A DNA stretch of 49,510 nt, filler included, from Stramenopiles sp. TOSAG23-2 (taxonomy: Eukaryota): assembly GCA_900128395.1 (NCBI GenBank). It is 2 parts of 2 records of this genome, joined end to end, with 100 filler letters (N's around TTAATTAATTAA, not from the genome) between each part and the next. Parts side by side here need not be neighbours in the genome. Positions count along the whole stretch, not along the records: positions 1 to 24,808 come from LT649460.1; 1 more part is not named here. The stretch is one strand, 5' to 3'. A program made the translations under genes and the position numbers. Positions 3,951 to 42,986 of this stretch are shown here, one piece after another. The number at the start of each line of letters is the position of its first letter. The stretch's first letter is position 1. A model generated the notes under the pieces. It searched no databases. It was not told where the DNA came from and saw only the letters and a program-made list of their open reading frames with translations.

Positions 3951-6900
3951 ATGGCTACCGTTATACCAGTAGCAGATGATCCACATGGTAAATACAGTGA
4001 TAAAAACCACGGGATGTCGGACGCTCAGCACAAAGGTGCAAAAAACCATTGGAAACACGTAAAAGCCGAAGTAAAAGTTGGTATGTTTGCAAAAGCGACT
4101 AAACACAAACATAAAATTGCAGCGTGTCATTGCACTGTAATTGGTGTTGTTGTACTCATAGTTGTTTTAACTACTGCAGCTGTTGCAGCCGCAGTGTATA
4201 AAAACCAAGATAAACTATGTTCAAAGGGATATACAAAATTCTGCCCAAAACCAGAACCTAAAGCAAATACACAAGCAGGGAAAGCATTTCAATTTGGAAC
4301 AGTTTCAGTAATACCCCCAAAACACGATTCTAGGCGCCGACTATCAGCAAAGTTTTCGTTCACGCAAGCTATCGACAAATTAGCCCGTGATATAACGCTA
4401 CGTGGTGCAGCAAAAAGAAATGGACGGAAATTAGCTATTGACACAGCAACATTTGCAGAAGATTCTGATTATAATATGGCAACGACAACATTTTTCGTAT
4501 CGGAAGAATCTGCAGAAGCTATGAACATGGTTAGTATGATCATGTGCGACGTAGCACAATTGCGAGCGGCGTATTTTGTAAATCAAGGACCATACAAAGC
4601 TCAAGTAGATGAGAGTAAATGCACAGCCGATGGATCTATGATGGAATGGACCGTAGATGTAAAGACAGTTGGAGCAGCTGATTCAAGTAATACGTTAACA
4701 TGCGCTGGTGATAATGAACCTGCTGTAAATGAAAAAGGCATCGCCACCTTAACTTGTGGCTGGAATATTGACATTTGGTTCCAGACTGGAGATGGTATGC
4801 CAATCAATGTGCAAATGAAAATATGGAAACCTGTTACTATGTGCGAAACTAATTGTGAACCTTCCATGTCATCATGTACATGTGATCCTATTCCTAGGAA
4901 AGAACTACAATTTAAGGCAGGCCCTATGGATATGGGTGGTACTATGGTTAATATGATGGGAATTTTGCATCAAACTGAAAATGGAGAACGAGACGAATCT
5001 ATTAAATTTGGCCAATTTATGTCAATGGGGGATCAATCCATGACTCAAGGTGCTATACATTGGTAAGTATGCCACACACACACACACAATCTCTTTCTTT
5101 TTTGTTTTTAATCACATATCACTAACATGAACTAATATATATATATATATATTAAATTTATAATATAAAATATAAACATATATATATATATAATAAAGTG
5201 AGTACAATACTGGTACAGGTGCTGGAAAAGTTTGGAGTCAATCAACTGAAGGAGGACCAGGGTCTAATCCAACAACGTTCAAATTAGCTTTTGATGGTAC
5301 GTATGTAAAAAAAAGACAAAGATGGAACTGCACAATGTCTTGACATGTCCGACCCAAAGGAAGTTGGAAGTCAATATCAATTATACGATAATACTGGCAA
5401 AGCTGTTATTTTTGAAGAAGGTTTTCCAATCGAAGCAGAATCCGCAGACGGTACAAAATACGAAGCCTGGGCAGGTTATCATGGTTTGCATGTACATAGC
5501 AGAGGCGGTGAGGATTCGGAGGCACAATCGCTATTTGCCGATGGCAAGAAAGTGAATAAAATCAATTATGACGCCGCCTCCAGCAGAACGCCGTATACAT
5601 TAAAAGTTGACAACGGGCGTTTAATGAAAGTATCACGAAAAACAATAACATTAGGGGAGTTGACAGGTGTTACCATGCAAGTTGGTTGGGGTAGTGATGT
5701 GCCAAGAATTATGTTTAATGGAACAAAATTACTGAAAGTTGGTGCTATGGGTGGCATGTGTTTTGCACAAAGCCAAAATGGGCCCCCTACGCTTGTGAAT
5801 GGACCAACAGACCAGTTCAGTTGTATGTGTCAAGGTAGATCATCTGGCCAATTATGGGGTGGGTCAAATATGTGGATGGAAACTTTTCAAGATATATCCA
5901 ATCCAACACCATTCGAAGTTTCTACTGAAGCATTTCCATGGGGCATAGATGTTTCTGCTGGGGAAGGATCGAGTCGGTTTCAAGGAAGAATGAAATTAGA
6001 AGTTGATCAAATAGTAAGAATGTGGATTGCAGGACCATCTTATCAGGGCGGGGCATTTATTGAAGGCCAGAATGTTACTCAAGGAAATGCAGTTGGTGTA
6101 GTTTATACATCAACCCCACAATCATTTACCGGTATTACAAAGAACTATAATCATGCTGAGCAGAGGAAGTCATATGACTGCAGTGGCGCAAAACAAGATT
6201 ATTCGGGGATGATAGGTGACTCTGTGTATTCAGGAACAAAATTGATCCAAGATGCAAGTGGAGCAACGGGTATAGTTAAAGGTCATGGTCATTTTGGATG
6301 GCGAATACAATTTGAAACGACATCAGGAACTTTCGTCGCTAATCAACCTATAAGAATGGTCGATCCAATAGAATTGTCTGGGATGTTTGAGCACTTCAGT
6401 ATAAATGGTTCTTTCACTCCAACTAGTATTAGTCAGCAAGGGCATGAATTACTAGTGAAAGTTACATCGGGAACATTTGCACAAGGTTATTACGATGCTT
6501 CTGCAAGTCAATATGTACCTGCTGCCGATATATATGTTGCTGGAATTAATCAAAATGATTTGTGGGGTTTTCATAGGGAGCAAGGTAAACTTAAGAACCA
6601 ACCAAATGCAAATACAGAGATTACATATACGACTAGAAAATTAGTATTCCCAGATGATACAGTTCCAGCATTGAAATGTTATGACCGTTGTCCAAAAGCT
6701 ACAGGTCTTGCAAGTAGCTGTTCCAGCAATGAGGATTGTTACGAAGGAGAGCCTGGTATTCTAGCAGATGTGAATGTAGACAGTCAAGGTAGTGGATGCG
6801 TTCAGGAAAATCTAGCTTTTGCCATAACAAAAGGTAATGGTGCGTTTACCGGTGCAAGTATTACAGGAACAGTTGATAGCAATGGTAAATTAGTCTCCGC

Positions 6901-7798
6901 TGAAGTGGAAACTTTTGGTAATGGATGTACCAATGACGACACCATTAGCGTTACTGTTAGTGGATGTACAAGTGCACCTAGTGTTTCAGCAAGTTGCAGG
7001 ACAGGAACAGATGATTCTGCGACATATGGACAAGCAAAAACTTATACTTATGATGGTTATTCCTTGAAAGATGGAAATGGTGCTAGTGTAACTGTAGCTG
7101 CAGCCGAAAATTCGCAGTTGAGTTCCATTCACTCAGGTATTCTTTTTGAGTTAACAAACGACGCAAAAGTTAAAGGACAGTGCGAGCATGACACTAGCCA
7201 AGTTTGCTACCATGATCTTCGTGAAAAATTGGATACGTATTATGAGTGGGAAACACGTTCAGCATGGTCAAAACGTGTCAGTTTGATCGATGAGGATGCT
7301 GGAACTTCCGTGAAGTTTGATCAGCCAATGGCAGTTTCATACACACATTCCGGTACAGAATCGAACAGCGGCAAAAATTATCATGGTACTAAAATTTTAC
7401 TATCATATGAAAATGAATTACGCGGATTTCCACAATTGTGTCTCGACAAGACCACTTTACAGAAAGCAGATTGTGCACCGGATTGGTCCGGTATAACAAG
7501 AAATATGCCTGATTTTACCGTTCCAGATAATGCGATTTTTACAAATACAGATACTGGAACAGAATATGTTGCAAAAGCAGGGGAAGTTGAACAAATCATG
7601 AAAATGGCAAGTAGCGCAGCATCTTGTTCCAGTCTTGATACGGCAACAGTACCTGCACCAGTGACAATTGATTTATATCAGTCATTTGAACTTGGTTCCA
7701 AGCCTGATTTATCTGACAAACCAACAGTAGTCTTCAGCGGCATGCTTCTTAAAGAGCTGGAAGAAATTGAAGCAGAAAAAGCAGCTGCATCTGAATAA
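3951..7798 (+). CDS. Large (~1236 aa) Cys/Gly/Thr-rich type II membrane-anchored or secreted protein; exon 1 3951-5062, intron 5063-5198, exon 2 5199-7798 with an apparent 1-nt frameshift in the A8 run at 5307-5314
   Basis: ORFs 3951-5066 and 5345-7798 are joined by GTAAGT donor at 5063, ACTAAC branch near 5121 and AAG acceptor at 5198. Exon 2 reads CEYNTGTGAGKVWSQ...KLAFDGTYVKK, then continues DKDGTAQCLDMSDPK only after removing one A. N-terminal TM segment VIGVVVLIVVLTTAAVAAAVY. Confidence 0.75.
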
Positions 7799-8369
7799 GT
7801 TTGTTCAATATAATCATCTCATATCACATCATAAAAAAAAAACATCTTCAATCTGTAGGCCAAAACAGAGACCATTTTTTCTCTTATATATATGATATAT
7901 ATCACATGATTTGAAATGATATATTATCACACATGTAATATGTTGTAAAAGAAAAAATATGGCGGTTTGCAGTCTTTTTTTTTTATAATACGTACTCCTA
8001 AAATGTATTATATACATGAATACAAAAAAAAAATGTAAAGCATGTTTTCATCACCGAAGAGAGCTGGGAGAGAGGGTAAAATATATTTTCATATAAAAAA
8101 ATACTTCGAAATCGGCTATATGTTATTATTATTAATATATGGTATCCTATCCAATTTGTACTTGAAAGTGTGACATTAGATACATAAACACGAATCTTAA
8201 TTTATTGTGGACACAGCAAGTAAAATCTGTATATTATTATAGTCGAGAGAATTTTCTCTGCTTTTTTTTGATATTTTGTTTTACTCTCCTCTCTCCTCTC
8301 TCCTAAAATATTGAAACATGTTGTATATCAAAAAACATCTATTCTTTTTAAAAGATTCAAGATTTTTTT

Positions 8370-8473
8370 GTCAGCAAATGCACATGTTTTTAAATACAAA
8401 AAATGTCTTTTGATTTTTTACAAAAGATTACCTTTTTTTGTACAAACTATTTTTTTAATGTGCAATGCATCAT
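8370..8473 (-). promoter_or_regulatory. Eukaryotic SECIS element (type II-like, extended apical stem) in the 3'UTR of the selenoprotein gene
   Basis: Minus strand reads A-UGAU (8473-8469), GCAUUGCACAUU, AAAAAAA, ~65 nt apical stem, AUGUGCAUUUGC, UGAC (8373-8370). Ten Watson-Crick pairs in helix II; unpaired As lie 12 nt above the GA/GA quartet. Located about 60 nt after the TAA stop. Confidence 0.75.
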
Positions 8474-8534
8474 TTCTAATACATCATGTACATATGTACA
8501 CAATTAATTATATATTATTTAAATTAATTCATAT

Positions 8535-9275
8535 TTATTGAATCATGCAAGGCAAGACACGTCGTTTGCCACAGCATAATGCATGTCCTATACTATAACC
8601 TTTTTCATTCGGTCTACTATCAATTTTAATTGGATTTCCCGCATCGTATGCATCAACTACCATTGCCATATGTTTCACCGCATCATTTGGTTTAGGTCTT
8701 GGAGTATGATTTTTACCACCCCACGAATATAATGATTTTGCTGAAGAAAACGTTGAGTCTTCAACAGATTGTTTTTGTAATAATATGATAGCTGGTTGAG
8801 TCATGCCATGTGGATAATCATATTCAGGATGATTTGGATCAAAACCAACGGCGGGTCTATTTGTTTTATCAGGGTGCCACGCAGACGGTACAATATCAAT
8901 GTCAGCAAGTTTCAAATCATTTAAAACATTTGCCAATTTATTTGTTGTGTCTGTTAAAATGTCATATGATAAGTTCCATGTATTTCTAGCCATTTCAACA
9001 TGTTCATCTTTTTGTCCTAAAATTACAAATGGTTTGATGCTTTTGCTTTCAAATAAATTATTAGAATCACCAAAATCACCAGCCCACCGACGGCACATCG
9101 GTCACCAATTTCCCCTAACGTATAATAATAAAACATGAGACTCCTTATTAGCATTTATAACAATCTCCATGGGATCTTTTATTGGCACTCCAACATGCGA
9201 TGATTCTTCCACTGCACCATTTTCAGTGACGTCACTAGCAATAACATAATTTTTCTCTATTACTTCTGATGTCAT
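8535..9275 (-). CDS. Selenoprotein of AhpC/TSA (peroxiredoxin-like, thioredoxin fold) type with UxxC motif, 246 aa, Sec58, C-terminal CaaX
   Basis: Frame is open from ATG 9275 (MTSEVIEKNY...HVLLLYVRGNW), through a single TGA at 9104-9102, into the tracked ORF (PMCRRW...). RGxW-[C/U]-PxC is the AhpC/TSA-type redox motif. Downstream YPHGMTQPAIILL...LYSW...RP fits the family. SECIS-like element in the 3'UTR. Confidence 0.9.
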
Positions 9276-9903
9276 TCTAAATATTTTTTCCTAATTAGAT
9301 ATTATATATATATATATACAATAATAATGTCGATAGTATTATTCCTCGTATATATTATCCTGGGAGACTGATTTAGAATCTCTCTCATATATGAATACAT
9401 ACAGTATTAATACTTACACACATGTTGTTGTTTCCGATTTCCGATCTACTATATATCTATACTAGGTGTTATCTAAAAGATCTTAGATCGATCGATCTTC
9501 TTCTATCCAATATCCAATCCCGCCAGCAAAAAACATAATAATTATATTGTAATTTACCATATAAGTACATAATATACCAATATGATAGGGATACATTTTC
9601 ACTTAAAATGATGAAAAATCCCTTTTTTCCAATTTTTCCAAAATAATTTCTTCGAACTATTAATAATTCCGTCGAACCCATCATCATCCCATCATACCAT
9701 CATACCACCAAGAAGAAGAGAAGAAGTAGATATATATATAGAATGTAGAAAGTGATAGTCAATATCATATTTTACAAAAGACAAACATTATAACCAAAAC
9801 TATTAAACAGGAATATTACGATAATAATAACACCACAAAAAGATATCACCCCCCCCCCTTACGCCATTCATAGATATATAATATATATTCAATTTGATAT
9901 ATC

Positions 9904-10812: not shown

Positions 10813-10999
10813 TATTTATGTACATATGTAATGTTTATAATATGATGGATTATTAGAAAACGTTTTTTTTGTCGAACCAAGTCATCATACATATATATAT
10901 AATAATGATGGATTATGGAGTTGAACGTGTGAAATTTTATACAATAAAAAAGTACGTAGTATTTGGTGATTTTCAATAATGTGCGTGCAGCTGACCCAT

Positions 11000-11200
11000 C
11001 ATTTTAGGTTTGTATTTACGAGTATTTCAGGAGAATTTTTAAACATAAGATATATCTACATTCTACATAGACATTGTATCTCTCCAACTCATTGAAAAAA
11101 AAAATCATTTTAGGTTTGTATTTACGAGTATTTCAGGAGAATTTTTAAACATAAGATACATCTACATAGATATTGTATCTCTCCAACTCATGAAAAAAAA
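11000..11200. repeat. Imperfect tandem duplication, unit ~100 bp
   Basis: cattttaggtttgtatttacgagtatttcaggagaatttttaaacataagata...ctccaactca occurs at ~11000 and ~11106. Confidence 0.9.
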
Positions 11201-11212
11201 TCAAAAATCAAA

Positions 11213-11299
11213 CGCAGCAAAGGTGGACTTGAACCACTATTTAATGAAAAATCTATAGGTTTGAAGCCTACACTCCAGACCCCTGAAGCTCATCGCTGC
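11213..11299 (-). tRNA. tRNA-Sec: tRNA-Sec (UCA), copy 1, 87 nt
   Basis: GCAGCGATGAGCTTCAGGGGTCTGGAGTGTAGGCTTCAAACCTATAGATTTTTCATTAAATAGTGGTTCAAGTCCACCTTTGCTGCG. 9-bp acceptor stem with U.U pair, long D-stem with 4-nt loop, anticodon loop CU-UCA-AA (11264-11262), long variable arm, 4-bp T-stem GUGG/CCAC, discriminator G. This is the eukaryotic 9/4 tRNA-Sec fold. Followed by T-runs (Pol III terminator). Confidence 0.97.
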
Positions 11300-11391
11300 C
11301 CATTTATAATTATTTCTCAATGGATATATATGCAATACTATTTGCATGTTATTAGGAAATGTAAATTTTATGTATATATAAGAAAATCAAA

Positions 11392-11478
11392 CGCAGCAAA
11401 GGTGGACTTGAACCACTATTTAATGAAAAATCTATAGGTTTGAAGCCTACACTCCAGACCCCTGAAGCTCATCGCTGC
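11392..11478 (-). tRNA. tRNA-Sec: tRNA-Sec (UCA), copy 2, identical to copy 1
   Basis: Same 87-nt sequence shifted by 179 bp; followed by TTTGATTTT. Confidence 0.95.
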
Positions 11479-11932
11479 CCATTTATAATTATTTCTCAAT
11501 GGATATATATGCAATACTATTTGCATGTTATTAGGAAATGTAAATTTTATGTATATATAAGAAATGAGGATTTAACAGGGACATAGCATCTAGCATTCAC
11601 ATACCACAGGAATTATCCATTTCAATCATTTATAATGGCACAGTATTGGATTTCGTGGATTTCATAATTTGGTACCAAAGTATGTATATTTTCGGTTATA
11701 ACTACTTTTTTAAAATCATATCTATCCTTAGATGTAATATTATTTCCGAAAGATTCTCAAAACGTTTCCTCCCAGCTTTTGAGTGAGATTTTGATGTTTT
11801 TAAACAACGGGAATGGAACTATTGCTATATTGACTAAAGTATGTATATTTTCGAATACTACTACTTTATAAAATAAAATCAATATAGCAATTTCCTATTA
11901 TTTCCGAAATAATTCCATAAAAAGCGAGGAGT

Positions 11933-12139
11933 TTTGATGAACAGAAGATTAAAGTGAGGGGAGGAATCCATTCAATAAGTCACTGTATGTGTGTGTTCGT
12001 GATGAATGACTCTTTCTCTAACATTTTTATTTTATTTATATATATACATATATACATGTATTTAGGAACGTTTGATGAACAGAAGATTAAAGTGAGGGGA
12101 GGAATCCATTCAATAAGTCACTGTACGTGTGTGTTCGTG
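11933..12139. repeat. Near-identical ~68-bp direct repeat pair
   Basis: tttgatgaacagaagattaaagtgaggggaggaatccattcaataagtcactgta(t/c)gtgtgtgttcgtg at ~11933 and ~12071. Confidence 0.9.
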
Positions 12140-13887: not shown

Positions 13888-16800
13888 TTAAAACAATGTA
13901 CTACCAAACGAAACTGAACGTTCTTTTAATACAGTCGTATGTCCCCCATCACCACTACTAGTAGTAGTATTACCATCATCAACGTTTTTCTTCTTCTTAT
14001 CATTATTATTATTATTATTATTATTCTTTGACATTACATTTAATTCATCTTCAATTTCAGTTAAAACTTTTAATATATAATCAATGGAAGGACGCATATT
14101 TTGATCATGTGACCAACATGCTTTTGCTAATTCGCAATATTGTGAATACATTATCGAACGTATTTTATCACTCATTGTCGTATCACTACCATCATCATTT
14201 TGTTTTTCTGCATCTGTTTCAAAGATTATATTATCTTTAAATGTTGGACGTAATTTGTGTTCACATACTTTTGTCATTAAATCAATAATCGATGTAGTGT
14301 CCTCACTGAATGGCACACCACGTTCCTAAATACATGTATATATGTATATATATAAATAAAATAAAAATGTTAGAGAAAGAGTCATTCAACACAATAATAA
14401 ATCGATTTATAAAATAAACCTACCATAATTTCCCACATGACCAAACCAAATGCATAAATATCAATACGTTGATCATAAAATCGACCAACCATTACTTCTG
14501 GTGCAATCCATGCTGGTGAACCACACCTCGTAGACAACAAGAAACTTTTCTCCAATGTTGAGCTTAAACCAAAATCACATAATCGTACGGATAAATTTTC
14601 AATACTTGTATTGATATTTTTACGCAAATATTCAGTTAATAATTCATTTGAATTAATTTTTTGTGTTTCGGTTTTATTACTACTGTTATTGCCTTGTTCA
14701 TCATCATCATCATCATCACTACTACAACTGCTACTGCTACTACTACTATCATCTTTGTTACTATCCTCCTCCTCGTCATCATTGCCATCATTTAATTTTT
14801 TCTTCATAAATCGTTGTAATTGAAGATTTTTAAAAATATGTTTATGTGGATGATCGTCTACTTTCTTCTTAGCCCTTTTTTTATATCCAATAATAATATT
14901 TGCAGTTTTTAAATCACGATGTACAACAACAGGTTCTTTATTATGTAAATATTTTAAACCGTTTGCAATATCTTTTGCAATTTTAATTTTCAATTTAAAG
15001 GATAATTGGATTTTATCGTTTGATAAAATATCACGTAAACATCCATATTTCATATATTTACTAACTAGCCAAACTTCATTTTGTGTTGCAACCACACCAA
15101 CAATTTCAACTACATTTGGATGTACTAATGATTGCATTAATTCAATTTCTTTTTGCATCAATGCAAGCTCACGTTCACTTTTTTCAGTATGTGTTCTACG
15201 ATAACATTTTATTGCAACTTTCATGCCTCTAACTTTGCACTTATAGGTAGTACATGCATGGCCAGATGATAAAATTTGTTTTTTCTTTAAAACAGGTATT
15301 TCCCATCTTTCAAGTGGTTTAATATTATTTTTTTTCACTTTTGTATCATATGGTAACGATAATTGCGATTCTTGATCTGTACTATTATTATTATTATTAT
15401 CATTATTATTGCTGATATTATTGTCGCTACTATTAATCAAATATGATGAAGAAGAAGATCTTGTAGCAGCACTAGTAAGAATACTACTAGATGTGTTGAT
15501 AGAATAATTATTATCATTTTGCTGTATTTGATGATTTTGTGATAATGGTTGTGCTAACTTTGTTTCTGTATTATTATTACGTAACCACATATTTGTAGCT
15601 TTTCTATTTTTTTGCCATTGTTGCAATTTTAAAATCAATGTTTGTACCATATTTTTTTTAACCGGTTTAATTAAATAATCATCTGCACCAAGTTCCATGG
15701 CTTTATTGATATCGTTTAATTCTTCCACAACGCTGACTAGTATGATTGGAATATGTAATAATAATATATTACTTTTAACTTGTTGGATAAATTCAATACC
15801 ATTGACACCTGGCATATTTTTATCACACATAATTAAATCATATTTGTATTGATTTTCAAGCAATTCTTGCAATGCATCATTAGCACTTGAACAACATTTT
15901 ACGACGTATCCACAAACTTCCAATACATGTCGTAATGCTAAACGATGGAATGCACTATCATCAATTACTAGTACAGTAATATCCGAAGTTTCTTTATATA
16001 CTTTAGTTGGTATTTCTCGTTCTGGAGTTTGTCGTGTTAGAATATTATCAACCACTTGTATTTCTACCACTGATGATGATGATGCTTGCGCTATGGTTAC
16101 TGGAACAACTATTGACGACGGTGAAGGTTGTTGAATAGTATTTGCAACATGTGGCATATTATTGTTACTATTGTTTCTACTATTGCTACCGCTACTCATA
16201 CTACTACTACTACTACTACTACTAACACCGCTATTACTGTTAATAATACTATTGTTACTAATCCCCATCACATTATTATTTGTAGTACCATTAAACGTTT
16301 CTTTTGTTTCTACGTTGTTATTATTATAATTTGTTGTGTGAAGAACATTTGCTATTATGCAACTGCTATTATTAATGTTATTTGCATGTGCGGATTGAAG
16401 ATTTAATTTAATATCTTCAAGACTGCTATTACTATATAACAATTTATTCGTATCTTCCAGACTACTAGTACTACTGCCAGTACTGCCACTACTATGAACT
16501 CTTTGTTTTTGTTTTTGCTGGACCTTTTCTTTCAATATATGTAAATCATATTTTGTTTGCAATTTTGTTAACATATCTAATGCAAGTGGTCGTTTATTTA
16601 TCGTTTTATCGATACTTTTTTGAATTAAATCAATAAAAAATTGTGGTGATTTTGTAGAGTTACTTGATGGCATCTCTGGGCGTTCCCCAATTTTATATTT
16701 ATATGGTACAACTCTAGGATCATGATATGTTTGTTCTGAAAAAGGTAACCTCCGTGTTAACATTTCCCAAAAGACAATTCCAACACTAAATATATCACAT

Positions 16801-18104
16801 CGCATTAATTCATTACCTGTAAACACTTTATTTTGTTTAAATCGTTCTGGGCATGTCCAATATAAACTAAATTCTTCTTTTTCTTTGTCATTCATTGGTG
16901 GTAACATATGGTGATGGTTGCTGTCGCCATTGTTTGTTGCTGCTGGTGGTAATACAACATTTGGGTTTGCGATCATAGTTGCTAATGTACTCTTTTTCGT
17001 TGTTGTTGTTGAAGACGTCGCCGTCGTCGTTGACCATATGTCATTTTTCATTTTATCTTTTGATCGATCCCATTCAAATGAATGTGTAAAATCAATTAAT
17101 TTACCATGATGATGTGTATGATCTAACATAATATTTGGTGATTTAATATCACCATGTATGATGATAATATTGTTTTTTTTCACCCGTCTTTGTTGATTGT
17201 CGTTGCTGCTGCTGCTGCTGCTGTTGTTGTTGTTGTTGTCCCTATTATTATTAGTAGTAGTATCATTATTTATGATATTATCATGATAAAAATAATTATG
17301 AAGGTACGTAATTGCTTGTAAGATATCAATACTAATTTTCAATGTTTGGCCATAAAAATCTAAATCAGGTAATTTTTTATTATTTAATCTATCATATAAT
17401 GTACCACCATTTAAATATTCTAAACATATGTATTTATTTACGTTGTTTTTTAATACATTTGAATTGCTTGACATTTTTTCAATCGATAATCCTAGAAACG
17501 TAATGATATTTGGATGTCGAATACGTTTAAAAAATTTCAATTCATTTTGCAATTGTGAATTTTTAGAATGTGTTTTCATGACAATCGGTGTACCATTCCA
17601 TTTTACTTTATATACGGTTGATAATGATGTATGTGATAAAATATATTTCGTTTTGTAATCAATATTATGTAATATTGGTGAGGTAGTAGTATGTGGTTGT
17701 TGTAAAATCGATGTTGTTGTATTGTTGTCGTCATTGTCGTTTTTATTCCTGTTGGAAGTAAAAGTCTTCTTCGAGTTGTATTTATCATTTTGATTGACAT
17801 GTAAACTTGATGTTTTGACGGTATTTAATTTACCTAACGTTGTTGCTGTTGTTGTTATAGATGGTATAGAATTTGATAACGATGACGATGTTGGCATTGA
17901 CAATATATTATTATTATTACTTGTTGTAATATTATTATTATTATTATTATTGCTTGTAACTATTTGGTGATTTATTATATCATCATTATTTTGACATATA
18001 TTAGTTTGGATATTATCATGATTCTGTGCAGAACTATTATAATTATTATTATTATTATTATTATTATTATTGGATGTATTCAACGTACTATTTTTGCAAC
18101 CCAT
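13888..18104 (-). CDS. Dual TKL-type kinase with central response-regulator receiver domain (kinase-REC-kinase), ~1372 aa; exon 18104-14424, intron 14423-14326, exon 14325-13888
   Basis: Kinase 1: HPNII, HGDIKSPN, DFT, WTCPE, DIFSVG. REC: VLVIDD...DLIMCDKNMPGVNG...ILVS...GADDYLIKP. Kinase 2: VAIK, HRDLKTAN, DFG, WIAPE, DIYAFG. GTAGGT donor and TTTAG acceptor join WEIM|ERGVPF in frame. N-terminus MGCKNS. Confidence 0.92.
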
Positions 18105-18506: not shown

Positions 18507-18720
18507 ATCCACACAGTAATATTATTATTTATAAAAATGGTCGAACTCCACAAGGCACCTAAACATTAAGGAATTTTTAATTAAAAACTACCAATTTTAT
18601 TTAAATTAAACGATTAATAATAGTATTTTTTGGTCAATTTTAATCTTTTTTGGTAAATGCCTTAATTGTTAGGTGCCTGGTGGAGTTCGACCTTTTTAAA
18701 AATAATATTACTGTGTGGAT
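18507..18720. mobile_element. MITE-like foldback element, ~214 bp, with ~65-bp imperfect terminal inverted repeats
   Basis: Left end atccacacagtaatattatt...ggtcgaactccacaaggcacctaa...ttaagg is the reverse complement of right end ccttaa...ttaggtgcctggtggagttcgacc...aataatattactgtgtggat. AT-rich non-coding core. Confidence 0.75.
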
Positions 18721-41345: not shown

Positions 41346-42595
41346 TTACCATCCATCACAAATTTCCCAACTATCCATAACTGCTTGTTCTTCAATTTTA
41401 CGATCATTATCATCCGTCTCAATAATATGAATTTTTCTGTGCTGATGTGTAGATGCACAACTGTGATGAGGTAGTATTTCCAGTATCATACCGATTGGAA
41501 AATTATCAAAATTAATTGGTGATCCATCACTTGTTTCTACTTCGCCAGCTTCTTGCTTTAAAACTTTTATACATAATTTGTGTTTTTCAGTACCTGCAAT
41601 ACGCCCATAATGATTGCTTTCCCCTTGTGCGCTGCAACCTGTCCATCCACAATCTATTAGCAACATATTTTGTTTCGGGTATTTCCCAATTACTCTAGTC
41701 AGTACACGGACAGCAATATCATCCAATGTACATGATCCTAAATCTGCTTGCATGCAATCGTAGTATATAAAATTTCCAGGATGTATTGCATCTATCTCAT
41801 TTAGATGCGATGGCATTATACTGCAAGTTGGAGTGCTTCCAACGGTTATCATTACATCAGACATGCCAATACCAATACCAAAATGAGATCGTATTTTATT
41901 TGCAAAATTGACAACAGCATCCCTTTCGATTTCAGCAATTGCTTTTATTTCATTCTTTGATTTCCCTCCATAAGAGTGTCCACCCTTTGGATGGAGCGTA
42001 GTGAAGTGTGTTAGAGGGGATATCTTTTTAAGGGTTAAGAAATTATACTTACGTGCGTATAGATTCCTCCAAAAATCATTTTGTCTTTGCCGGCATTGTA
42101 TAATGCAGCTATTAGTTCCAAACTGTCTGGATCTTTTGGATCTATTCCATCTCTGTGGTATCCACAATCTACCATGACCCAAACATGCCATGGTTTAATA
42201 TGATTTGGATGGGAAAAATTAATTAAGGCACTTATCATTTCCATTGAATCTACCAAAATCGAAAATTTATCCATTTTGTTATTTAGCTTCATTGCATCCA
42301 TAAATTTATCAGGGGTAATTGGAACAGCATATAAAATATCATCGAATCCACCATTGCAAAAGAAATTCACTTCTGCCAATGTTGAACAGACAATACCATT
42401 TCTACGACCTCCTGTTTGTATCATTGCGCCTTGGATCGTTTTGTGTGTTTTTACATGAGGTGTCAGCTTTACATTGAATTTGTCTGCCTGTTTTAACATT
42501 TGATATGCATTGTTTTTAATTTTATTTAAATACCCAATTAAACACGGTGTTCTTAATTCGGATATTGATTTTGCTGTGGACGATAATGAAGCCAT
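41346..42595 (-). CDS. D-serine dehydratase / D-threonine aldolase-like fold-type III PLP enzyme (Dsd1 family), 393 aa; exon 42595-42053, intron 42052-41985, exon 41984-41346
   Basis: LRTP, PHVKTHKT (PLP lysine), STLAE, DDILYAVP, VDCGYHRDG, YTH|GGHSY (in-frame across a 68-nt GTAAGT...CTAAC...AAG intron), VGSTPT, HPGNFIYYD, QEAG, PHHSC (Zn ligands). Confidence 0.93.
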
Positions 42596-42628
42596 GATAA
42601 TGTGGTTTATATTTTCAATTGTACAATA

Positions 42629-42669
<41 letters not shown>

Positions 42670-42986
42670 TACGTATATTAGCTTCTTATATTTATTGGCA
42701 ACAACATACGCGGGTAATTTCTTCAAGGAGTAATCATACATGTGGTCTATTATAATACATGCTGTACCTGGTATGTATATTTTTAATAAAAGAAGAGGGT
42801 TTTTTTTTTTTAAGGTTAGCTAGCCCAGCTAGCCCGGCTAGCCAGGAGTGCATGACTGTGTGTGATGATGAGGAGAGATGAGAATTGCACAACAATTCAA
42901 TCAATGAAAGATTATAATATATTTATCATATTGGTTCAAGAAGATAGTATATAAGTATATAACAAAGAAATCATCAATTGTTAAGC

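Follow-up and report, generated by a model that had tools for sequence, protein, structure and literature searches.

In SECIS elements, the core forms a kink-turn to which SBP2 binds; SBP2 in turn brings in eEFSec and the Sec-tRNA, and the AAR motif is also needed (PMC8704476, PMC2792357). Helix II sets the distance between the core and the AAR motif, and the apical part is described as being of minor importance for the efficiency: when the apical parts of human elements were swapped, the effect was only 2- to 5-fold (PMC2761289). The criteria that we adopted for the type II elements are a position in the 3′-UTR, >51–111 nt from the UGA, and an apical AA located 10–13 nt above the core. For the size of the apex, operational limits exist in the search tools: in the four SECISearch patterns, no more than 25 nt may follow the AA, and the SECISearch3 filter accepts an apex of at most 30 nt (PMC3753652, supplements S1 and S4). 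The training set of SECISearch3 was itself collected with these patterns (PMC3753652, supplement S2), and the limit on the apex length has thus not been tried against unbiased data. Larger apices are known from protists. Long mini-stems are reported for Ostreococcus tauri, O. lucimarinus and some Chlamydomonas, and an "extremely long mini-stem" is mentioned for the deiodinase-like SECIS of Dictyostelium (PMC2375036); the statement in an earlier sequence-only reading of the present locus, that type II elements have only a short apical mini-stem, was therefore overstated. As for the proteins, selenoproteins of the AhpC family are listed for bacteria, protists, sponges and choanoflagellates (PMC3753652, supplement S6), algal forms are named AhpC_a and AhpC_b (PMC7539508), and the published alignment of the family includes both Sec and Cys members (PMC3753652). 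Finally, for 11 of 16 fungal UGA-Sec genes SECISearch3 returns nothing, and no structure is identified in the text of that study, which accepted the SECIS-less genes by homology (10.1101/314781).

The window, i.e., the whole stretch of 49,510 nt (filler included) from Stramenopiles sp. TOSAG23-2 that was analysed here, has a G+C content of about 30% and is eukaryotic, with genes for kinases, a GOLD/PX protein and a Nup93/Nic96 protein. The sequencing runs that contain the stretch are marine. Several other structures were seen in it. A long AT-rich hairpin (7804–7930, about −28 kcal/mol) is located just past the stop of the convergent plus-strand gene. The adjacent plus-strand ORFs at 3951–5066 and 5345–7798 (371 and 817 aa, respectively) have no Pfam match and may be one split gene, and a membrane stretch appears to be present in the former. 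The minus strand carries, at 14382–18104, the gene of a kinase–response-regulator receiver–kinase protein, with an apparent further exon near 13888–14325. It also has, at 41346–42670, a D-serine dehydratase-like gene in two overlapping frames, which is probably split by an intron and has a serine dehydratase domain as well as an alanine racemase N-terminal one. A long inverted repeat at 18539–18692 matched MIR9563 with E 0.0015 and 36.9 bits, which falls well short of the gathering score of 90.

An AhpC/TSA-family (peroxiredoxin-like) gene on the minus strand of the window carries an in-frame TGA at the first residue of a UxxC motif, in the context RGNW-U-PMC (Table 1). The TGA is covered by RNA contigs without a listed change in all four sequencing runs used. 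The Pfam profile AhpC-TSA (PF00578) matches residues 42–118, spanning the TGA, with E 1.3e-7 and 32 bits against a cut-off of 26, and it was also matched in five of the seven aligned members. In the fold search with the predicted model (mean pLDDT 59.7), the top matches were BCP/PrxQ/Prx proteins, which have the thioredoxin fold; the NCBIfam search gave only a sub-threshold SelL-related match, and the sequence search of the PDB with the protein gave nothing useful. When compared by eye with the published alignment, the protein resembles the AhpC selenoproteins in its AhpC/TSA domain and in having the UxxC box in an RGxWUPxC context, as in bacteria and sponges, and the sponge members have similar downstream motifs (PMC3753652).

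The close homologues are few and all environmental (6 by word search and 7 by profile search). Five of six (P0002, P0003, P0005, P0006 and P0007), and also the distant P0011, start at a Met just past the TGA position, as is usual for gene callers at a stop. A metagenome scan of 66 candidate stretches provided three loci: L001, which is a haplotype of the same species; L002, an orthologue with 64% protein identity, in which the UGA and the frame on both sides of it are kept; and L003, whose homologue stops at residue 155, before the stop codon of the gene. Including the window, the UxxC motif with TGA occurs in all four eukaryote-like loci seen. From position 535 of L003, the homologous gene passes into unrelated sequence with no GT at the junction, the locus being a truncated copy or a chimeric contig. 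The homologue searches, one of which used a profile lacking the N-terminal motif, found no close homologue with a Cys aligned at the UGA. One weak match of 50 (L004, 30% identity) was seen in the prokaryote genomes, and no relative was found among 39 stretches of the viral contigs. The source name "Stramenopile-MAST_4", carried by one member of a more distant homologue cluster, suggests marine stramenopile relatives. Two identical tRNA-Sec genes are located 2.7 kb from the gene, which itself very probably decodes its in-frame UGA as Sec. The tRNA-Sec pair is a perfect 179-nt tandem duplication (11204–11561, minus strand), either real or an assembly artefact, and near-identical direct repeats (69, 64, 40 and 41 nt) lie around the two genes at 10998–12139.

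Table 1 Coordinates, in the window, of the putative selenoprotein gene, the SECIS-like element, the overlapping compact fold and the tRNA-Sec genes
Feature	Position	Strand	Remarks
AhpC/TSA-family (peroxiredoxin-like) putative selenoprotein gene	8535..9275	minus	246 codons with TGA read as U; no intron seen
In-frame TGA, codon 58, first residue of the UxxC motif (putative Sec)	9102..9104	minus	L001, L002 and L003 also have TGA at this position
SECIS-like element, whole	8473-8370	minus	104 nt; A-UGAU/UGAC core
Conserved A (8473) and 5′ core UGAU (8472-8469)	8469..8473	minus	A-UGAC in the orthologue L002
Helix II, 5′ strand	8458..8468	minus	Pair probabilities 0.92-1.0 in the isolated element; 5′ arm identical to L002 at 18/22 positions
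A7 run (AAR motif)	8450..8456	minus	Spacing of 12 nt to the core; part of a large A-rich internal loop
Extended helix III	8394..8443	minus	10-bp A/U-rich stem, internal loop, 7-bp stem, 8-nt terminal loop
Helix III stem 1, 10 bp	8443-8434/8403-8394	minus	Predicted fold
Helix III stem 2, 7 bp	8427-8421/8412-8406	minus	Predicted fold
Terminal loop of the apex, 8 nt	8420-8413	minus	Predicted fold
Helix II, 3′ strand	8374..8385	minus	3′ arm and core identical to L002 at 15/19 positions
3′ core UGAC, giving the GA of the tandem G.A/A.G pairs	8370..8373	minus	CGAC in L002
Fold B, compact SECIS-like	8314..8389	minus	Core C-UGAC 8374-8370 and UGAU 8330-8327; helix I 8389-8382/8321-8314
tRNA-Sec gene, copy 1	11213..11299	minus	ARAGORN anticodon TCA; Rfam RF01852, 64.4 bits
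tRNA-Sec gene, copy 2, identical to copy 1	11392..11478	minus	In the 179-nt tandem unit

The SECIS-like element begins 61 nt past the TAA stop of this gene and 628 nt past the in-frame UGA, and is hence located in the 3′-UTR. Its two helix II strands form 10 Watson–Crick pairs, 5 of which are G-C, with a 1x2 U loop. The A7 run is unpaired in all folds, and the helix III following it is paired in the predicted folds, so that the apical bulge offers an unpaired AA(R) below a further helix, as in type II elements. The apex between the strands of helix II is 71–72 nt long, and the distance from the AA to the GA is 82 nt. All the features given by the sequence-only reading, including the A-UGAU/UGAC quartet, helix II, the position of the A7 run and the apical pairings, were found where it had placed them on the minus strand, and its apex of about 70 nt agrees with the measured and paired one; what it missed are the weakness of helix I and the compact fold overlapping the element (8374–8327).

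Compared with the type II (form 2) elements, the similarities are the RUGAN/NGAN core with its invariant UGA and GA (A-UGAC/CGAC in L002), the tandem GA and the 12 nt from the core to the unpaired AA (PMC2647825, PMC3753652), as well as a helix II of normal length, the extra helix over the A bulge and the 3′-UTR position. Unlike those elements, the present one has the apex of 71–72 nt against the 25 nt allowed after the AA in the patterns or the 30 nt in the SECISearch3 filter, a helix III composed of two stacked stems, a weak helix I, and C as the last core base, which departs from the W of the finer KGAW core consensus. Because the element would work like a type II SECIS yet fails the operational size test, we filed it as a variant of type II. 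With the elements of Ostreococcus and Dictyostelium it shares the enlargement of the apical stem of a type II element in a protist genome; however, A instead of G precedes the core here, in contrast to the long mini-stem elements reported there, and the AA-to-GA distance, for which 15–39 nt were searched in that study, is 82 nt in the window, 85 nt in L001 and 51 nt in L002 (PMC2375036). Among the titles, abstract openings and passages surveyed, from which most subscription journals and all figures are missing, no description of a SECIS apex of this size was found.

The transcription of this region was examined using RNA contigs from four runs of four studies, which give neither the strand nor the 3′ end. 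The gene is covered by contigs in all four runs, with no joints. The whole element is contained in one unspliced contig in two of the runs, X15 (8299–8476) and X16, a polyA library (8293–8497), and X16 alone bridges both sides of the element under a 31-base rule. A contig of X18 covers 8433–8564 with indels of the L001 type and overlaps a contig of the coding region, and X17 has no cover on the element. Since no cover was found at 8141–8281 or 9269–9400 in any of the four runs, the cover tracks the gene and not DNA. No single contig includes both the coding region and the 3′ arm, and the linkage and the strand are inferred from the overlapping contigs. The contigs of two studies end at 8293 and 8299, on a GA repeat that varies between the haplotypes, and show no poly(A) loose end; for this reason, the 3′ end was not called. 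A poly(A) site upstream of 8370 on the transcript, which the sequence-only reading had named as speaking against its proposal, is not borne out for the molecules seen, because the contigs of X15 and X16 span the element.

The comparison among the loci was made separately for the arms, the apex and the flanks; MAFFT misaligned L002 across the whole UTR. Within the element, L001 differs from the window by a 3-nt insertion beside the A run and by one change in the terminal loop, both of which are unpaired. As L003 has no usable 3′-UTR, one independent orthologue, L002, is left for comparing the element. In L002, the corresponding element occurs 35 nt past the stop and is composed of A-UGAC, an 11-pair helix II, an AAA spaced 13 nt from the core, a helix III of 7 bp and CGAC, with an apex of 38 nt against the 71–72 nt of the window (71–75 nt including the haplotype). 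Each of the two arms is matched between the window and L002 to a degree that none of 2000 shuffles reached, while the apex, the upstream flank and the downstream flank are similar at the level of chance (629, 792 and 721 of 2000 shuffles as good, respectively). The conservation of two short arms, predicted to pair with each other and separated by 71 or 38 nt, is the strongest evidence, and it comes from one orthologue. The search for covariation proposed earlier was answered in part: L002 keeps both arms, but mostly by sequence identity and with little two-sided covariation, since inspection of helix II revealed one C-G pair gained and one U-A pair lost. An arm-motif scan of the viral contigs gave 114 stretches with a sole strict match, L052, which is not SECIS-like in its fold and was taken as a chance occurrence.

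On these grounds, we estimate at about 80% the probability that the element is the working SECIS of the AhpC-like selenoprotein mRNA, type-II-like and having a greatly extended helix III. The assignment to the upstream gene is based on the gene context, the arms conserved in the orthologue and the unspliced RNA contigs.

The predicted folding depends on the flanking sequence. When isolated, the 104-nt element folds as described (−22.3 kcal/mol, z −2.37; 3 of 200 shuffles equal), and the apex alone also folds better than most shuffles (z −2.76; 2 of 200 equal). With flanks, the three core-adjacent pairs lose in some folds to a local 9-bp hairpin able to seize the 5′ core; the RNAfold check that had been proposed thus gave the expected structure for the isolated element but not throughout in its context. 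The probability of the core-adjacent pairs was 0.89–0.94 in a 184-nt stretch and 0.0–0.19 in three longer stretches reaching 8500 or past it. For the lowest pairs of helix II, the full UTR gave a probability of 0.16 (37 °C) or 0.03 (20 °C), against 0.0–0.99 over the other stretches folded, and restoring the core-adjacent pairs costs 0.5 and 2.4 kcal/mol, respectively. When L002 is folded with its flanks, the minimum has a shifted register, 0.9 kcal/mol below that of the SECIS, the first pair of which has a probability of 0.08–0.13. The folding model has no term for the stabilization by the kink-turn or by SBP2. Helix I is weak: the best pattern options have 6 of 8 pairs, and forcing the three proximal pairs costs 7.3 kcal/mol. 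It is well formed in L002. Three pairs of a helix I located 7 nt past the core in both may covary (AGA/UCU here and UCG/CGA in L002), but this helix is too short to trust. A near-palindrome close upstream of the core (8483–8504, minus strand) forms the 9-bp hairpin, which is also present in L001 and not in L002.

The frequency of such structures bears on whether the fold arose by chance or is a decayed element, the UGA being a real stop or recoded otherwise. A relaxed long-apex pattern (apex of 26–100 nt) has 196 matches on both strands of the window (86 and 110), and a match to this pattern by itself therefore proves little; the lack of an Rfam match and of a close Cys homologue in the searches also fits such a reading. 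When the first three pairs on the core were to be Watson–Crick, with at least 10 pairs and at least 5 G-C pairs, the only match in the whole window was the element itself, directly behind the UGA gene; this strict pattern was absent from all 5000 dinucleotide shuffles made of the 255-nt 3′ region and occurred once in 12 block-shuffled windows, a null that is optimistic because the strict conditions were set after the element and L002 had been seen. Moreover, both arms are conserved within an otherwise unalignable UTR, the UGA and the frame on both of its sides are kept at 64% identity with the Pfam match crossing the UGA, and a Sec tRNA is present, and we therefore judge an origin by chance or decay to be very improbable. 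A further candidate for the working SECIS is the compact fold B, beside which the long element would be a relic or an alternative conformer. The two are mutually exclusive, as fold B takes the 3′ core of the long element as its own 5′ core. Fold B is of canonical size, satisfies the whole Loose+ pattern in each of the haplotypes, has a helix II of 9–10 pairs, and supplies, as a perfect 8-bp stem, the helix I that is missing from the long fold; its isolated energies are −12.3 and −13.3 kcal/mol. It is, however, less stable than the long fold by about 6 kcal/mol, with a pair probability of 0.0 at both 37 and 20 °C; C rather than A or G precedes its UGA, its helix II contains one G-C pair and varies by indels between the haplotypes, and its upper part contributes only −3.2 kcal/mol. 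Patterns like it occur in 685 of 1000 shuffled UTRs, and in 151 of 1000 even with a perfect 7-bp helix I. It is absent from L002, where CGAC stands at this place, and no compact Loose+ candidate was found there within 490 nt past the stop. Fold B is probably a chance pattern, and that it serves as the SECIS of this gene is very improbable; it may still take part in an RNA switch, and a loose search could report it as the SECIS of the AhpC-like gene.

The other alternatives accept the arms and concern the apex. The apex itself may be selected, as a binding site or a switch that tunes Sec insertion or the mRNA stability in this lineage, a reading that agrees with a SECIS function of the core. 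That the apex alone outfolds its shuffles, that the changes between the haplotypes avoid the apical stems, and that the window and L002 are both over the limit and share a long A-rich 5′ bulge would be consistent with this reading. Nevertheless, the apex has no sequence similarity to that of L002 and differs nearly twofold from it in length, pairing between A runs and U runs is readily gained in DNA of 70% A+T, and two haplotype changes are too few as a sign of selection; we regard a selected apex as rather unlikely. The apex might also be wholly or partly an intron of the 3′-UTR, the mature mRNA then carrying an ordinary SECIS. GT and AG dinucleotides permit introns of 25, 37 or 41 nt, and a rare spliced form could go unseen because the contigs drop rare variants. 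The apex is, however, contiguous in two RNA runs and no joint was found in any run; the three possible GT-AG cuts would leave 31–47 nt, which still exceeds the 30-nt limit; and the apex of L002 is over the limit as well. Such splicing is extremely improbable.

The number of nucleotides after the AA is 69 in the window, 72 in L001 and 36 in L002, all of which exceed the operational size limits of SECISearch and SECISearch3. In a re-implementation of the upper Loose+ pattern, the native element fails, while an element whose apex was shortened in silico fits. From the published limits, the SECISearch patterns and the SECISearch3 filter would discard the elements of both the window and L002. At E up to 1, the Rfam model RF00031 matched nothing in the window, and with E up to 10 it gave no match in 8250–8560 or in positions 600–800 of L002; this miss may also stem from sequence divergence. 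The earlier suggestion that pattern-based or filter-based finders could miss the element is thus upheld by the 25- and 30-nt limits against 69–72 nt and by the absence of an RF00031 match, whereas the undercounting of the selenoproteome deduced from it stands only for the SECIS-first pipelines, which would miss the gene; searches that start from homology rely on the Sec-aligned UGA. In the literature searched, no selenoproteome was found to be published for this group. In that SECISearch3 would return no SECIS for it, the gene resembles the fungal SECIS-less genes, which are bona fide UGA-Sec genes for which this finder gives none (10.1101/314781).

If the element is a SECIS with an extended helix III, its action can be outlined from established SECIS biology. 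The UGA/GA core would form the kink-turn and bind SBP2, and helix II would keep the usual spacing between the core and the unpaired A run. According to a 2022 cryo-EM structure, eEFSec is reportedly located at the apical A motif. Together with the Sec-tRNA encoded nearby, eEFSec would decode codon 58 as Sec. Helix III seems to have grown to a 50-nt interrupted stem within the apex of 71–72 nt; because this long arm starts beyond the A run, it could project away, leaving the recognized parts intact and correctly spaced. Selection would act on the core, helix II and the A run, and the apex past the A run would be a tolerated appendage, the length of which may drift as long as it is paired and its loop is closed.

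The size of the apex is surprising, being more than twice the limit of the standard tools, although the direction of the change has precedent. The conserved arms with an apex of 71–72 nt, beside an orthologue with one of 38 nt, constitute a natural test of the apex size limit. A wider proposition, which we put forward tentatively and hold to be possible rather than probable, is that the SECIS elements of this lineage routinely carry functional apical stems two to three times the limits of the tools: the machinery would read the core and the A bulge, and ignore or use an arm of 50–70 nt. A hidden class of this kind might then lie behind some of the "SECIS-less" genes of protists and early fungi, and engineered Sec-recoding RNAs might use the apex as a site for free insertions. 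If the element works, SECIS-first discovery misses new selenoprotein families in such protists, and a search that is agnostic about the apex, conducted behind Sec-aligned UGAs, could be tried on the genes listed as SECIS-less.
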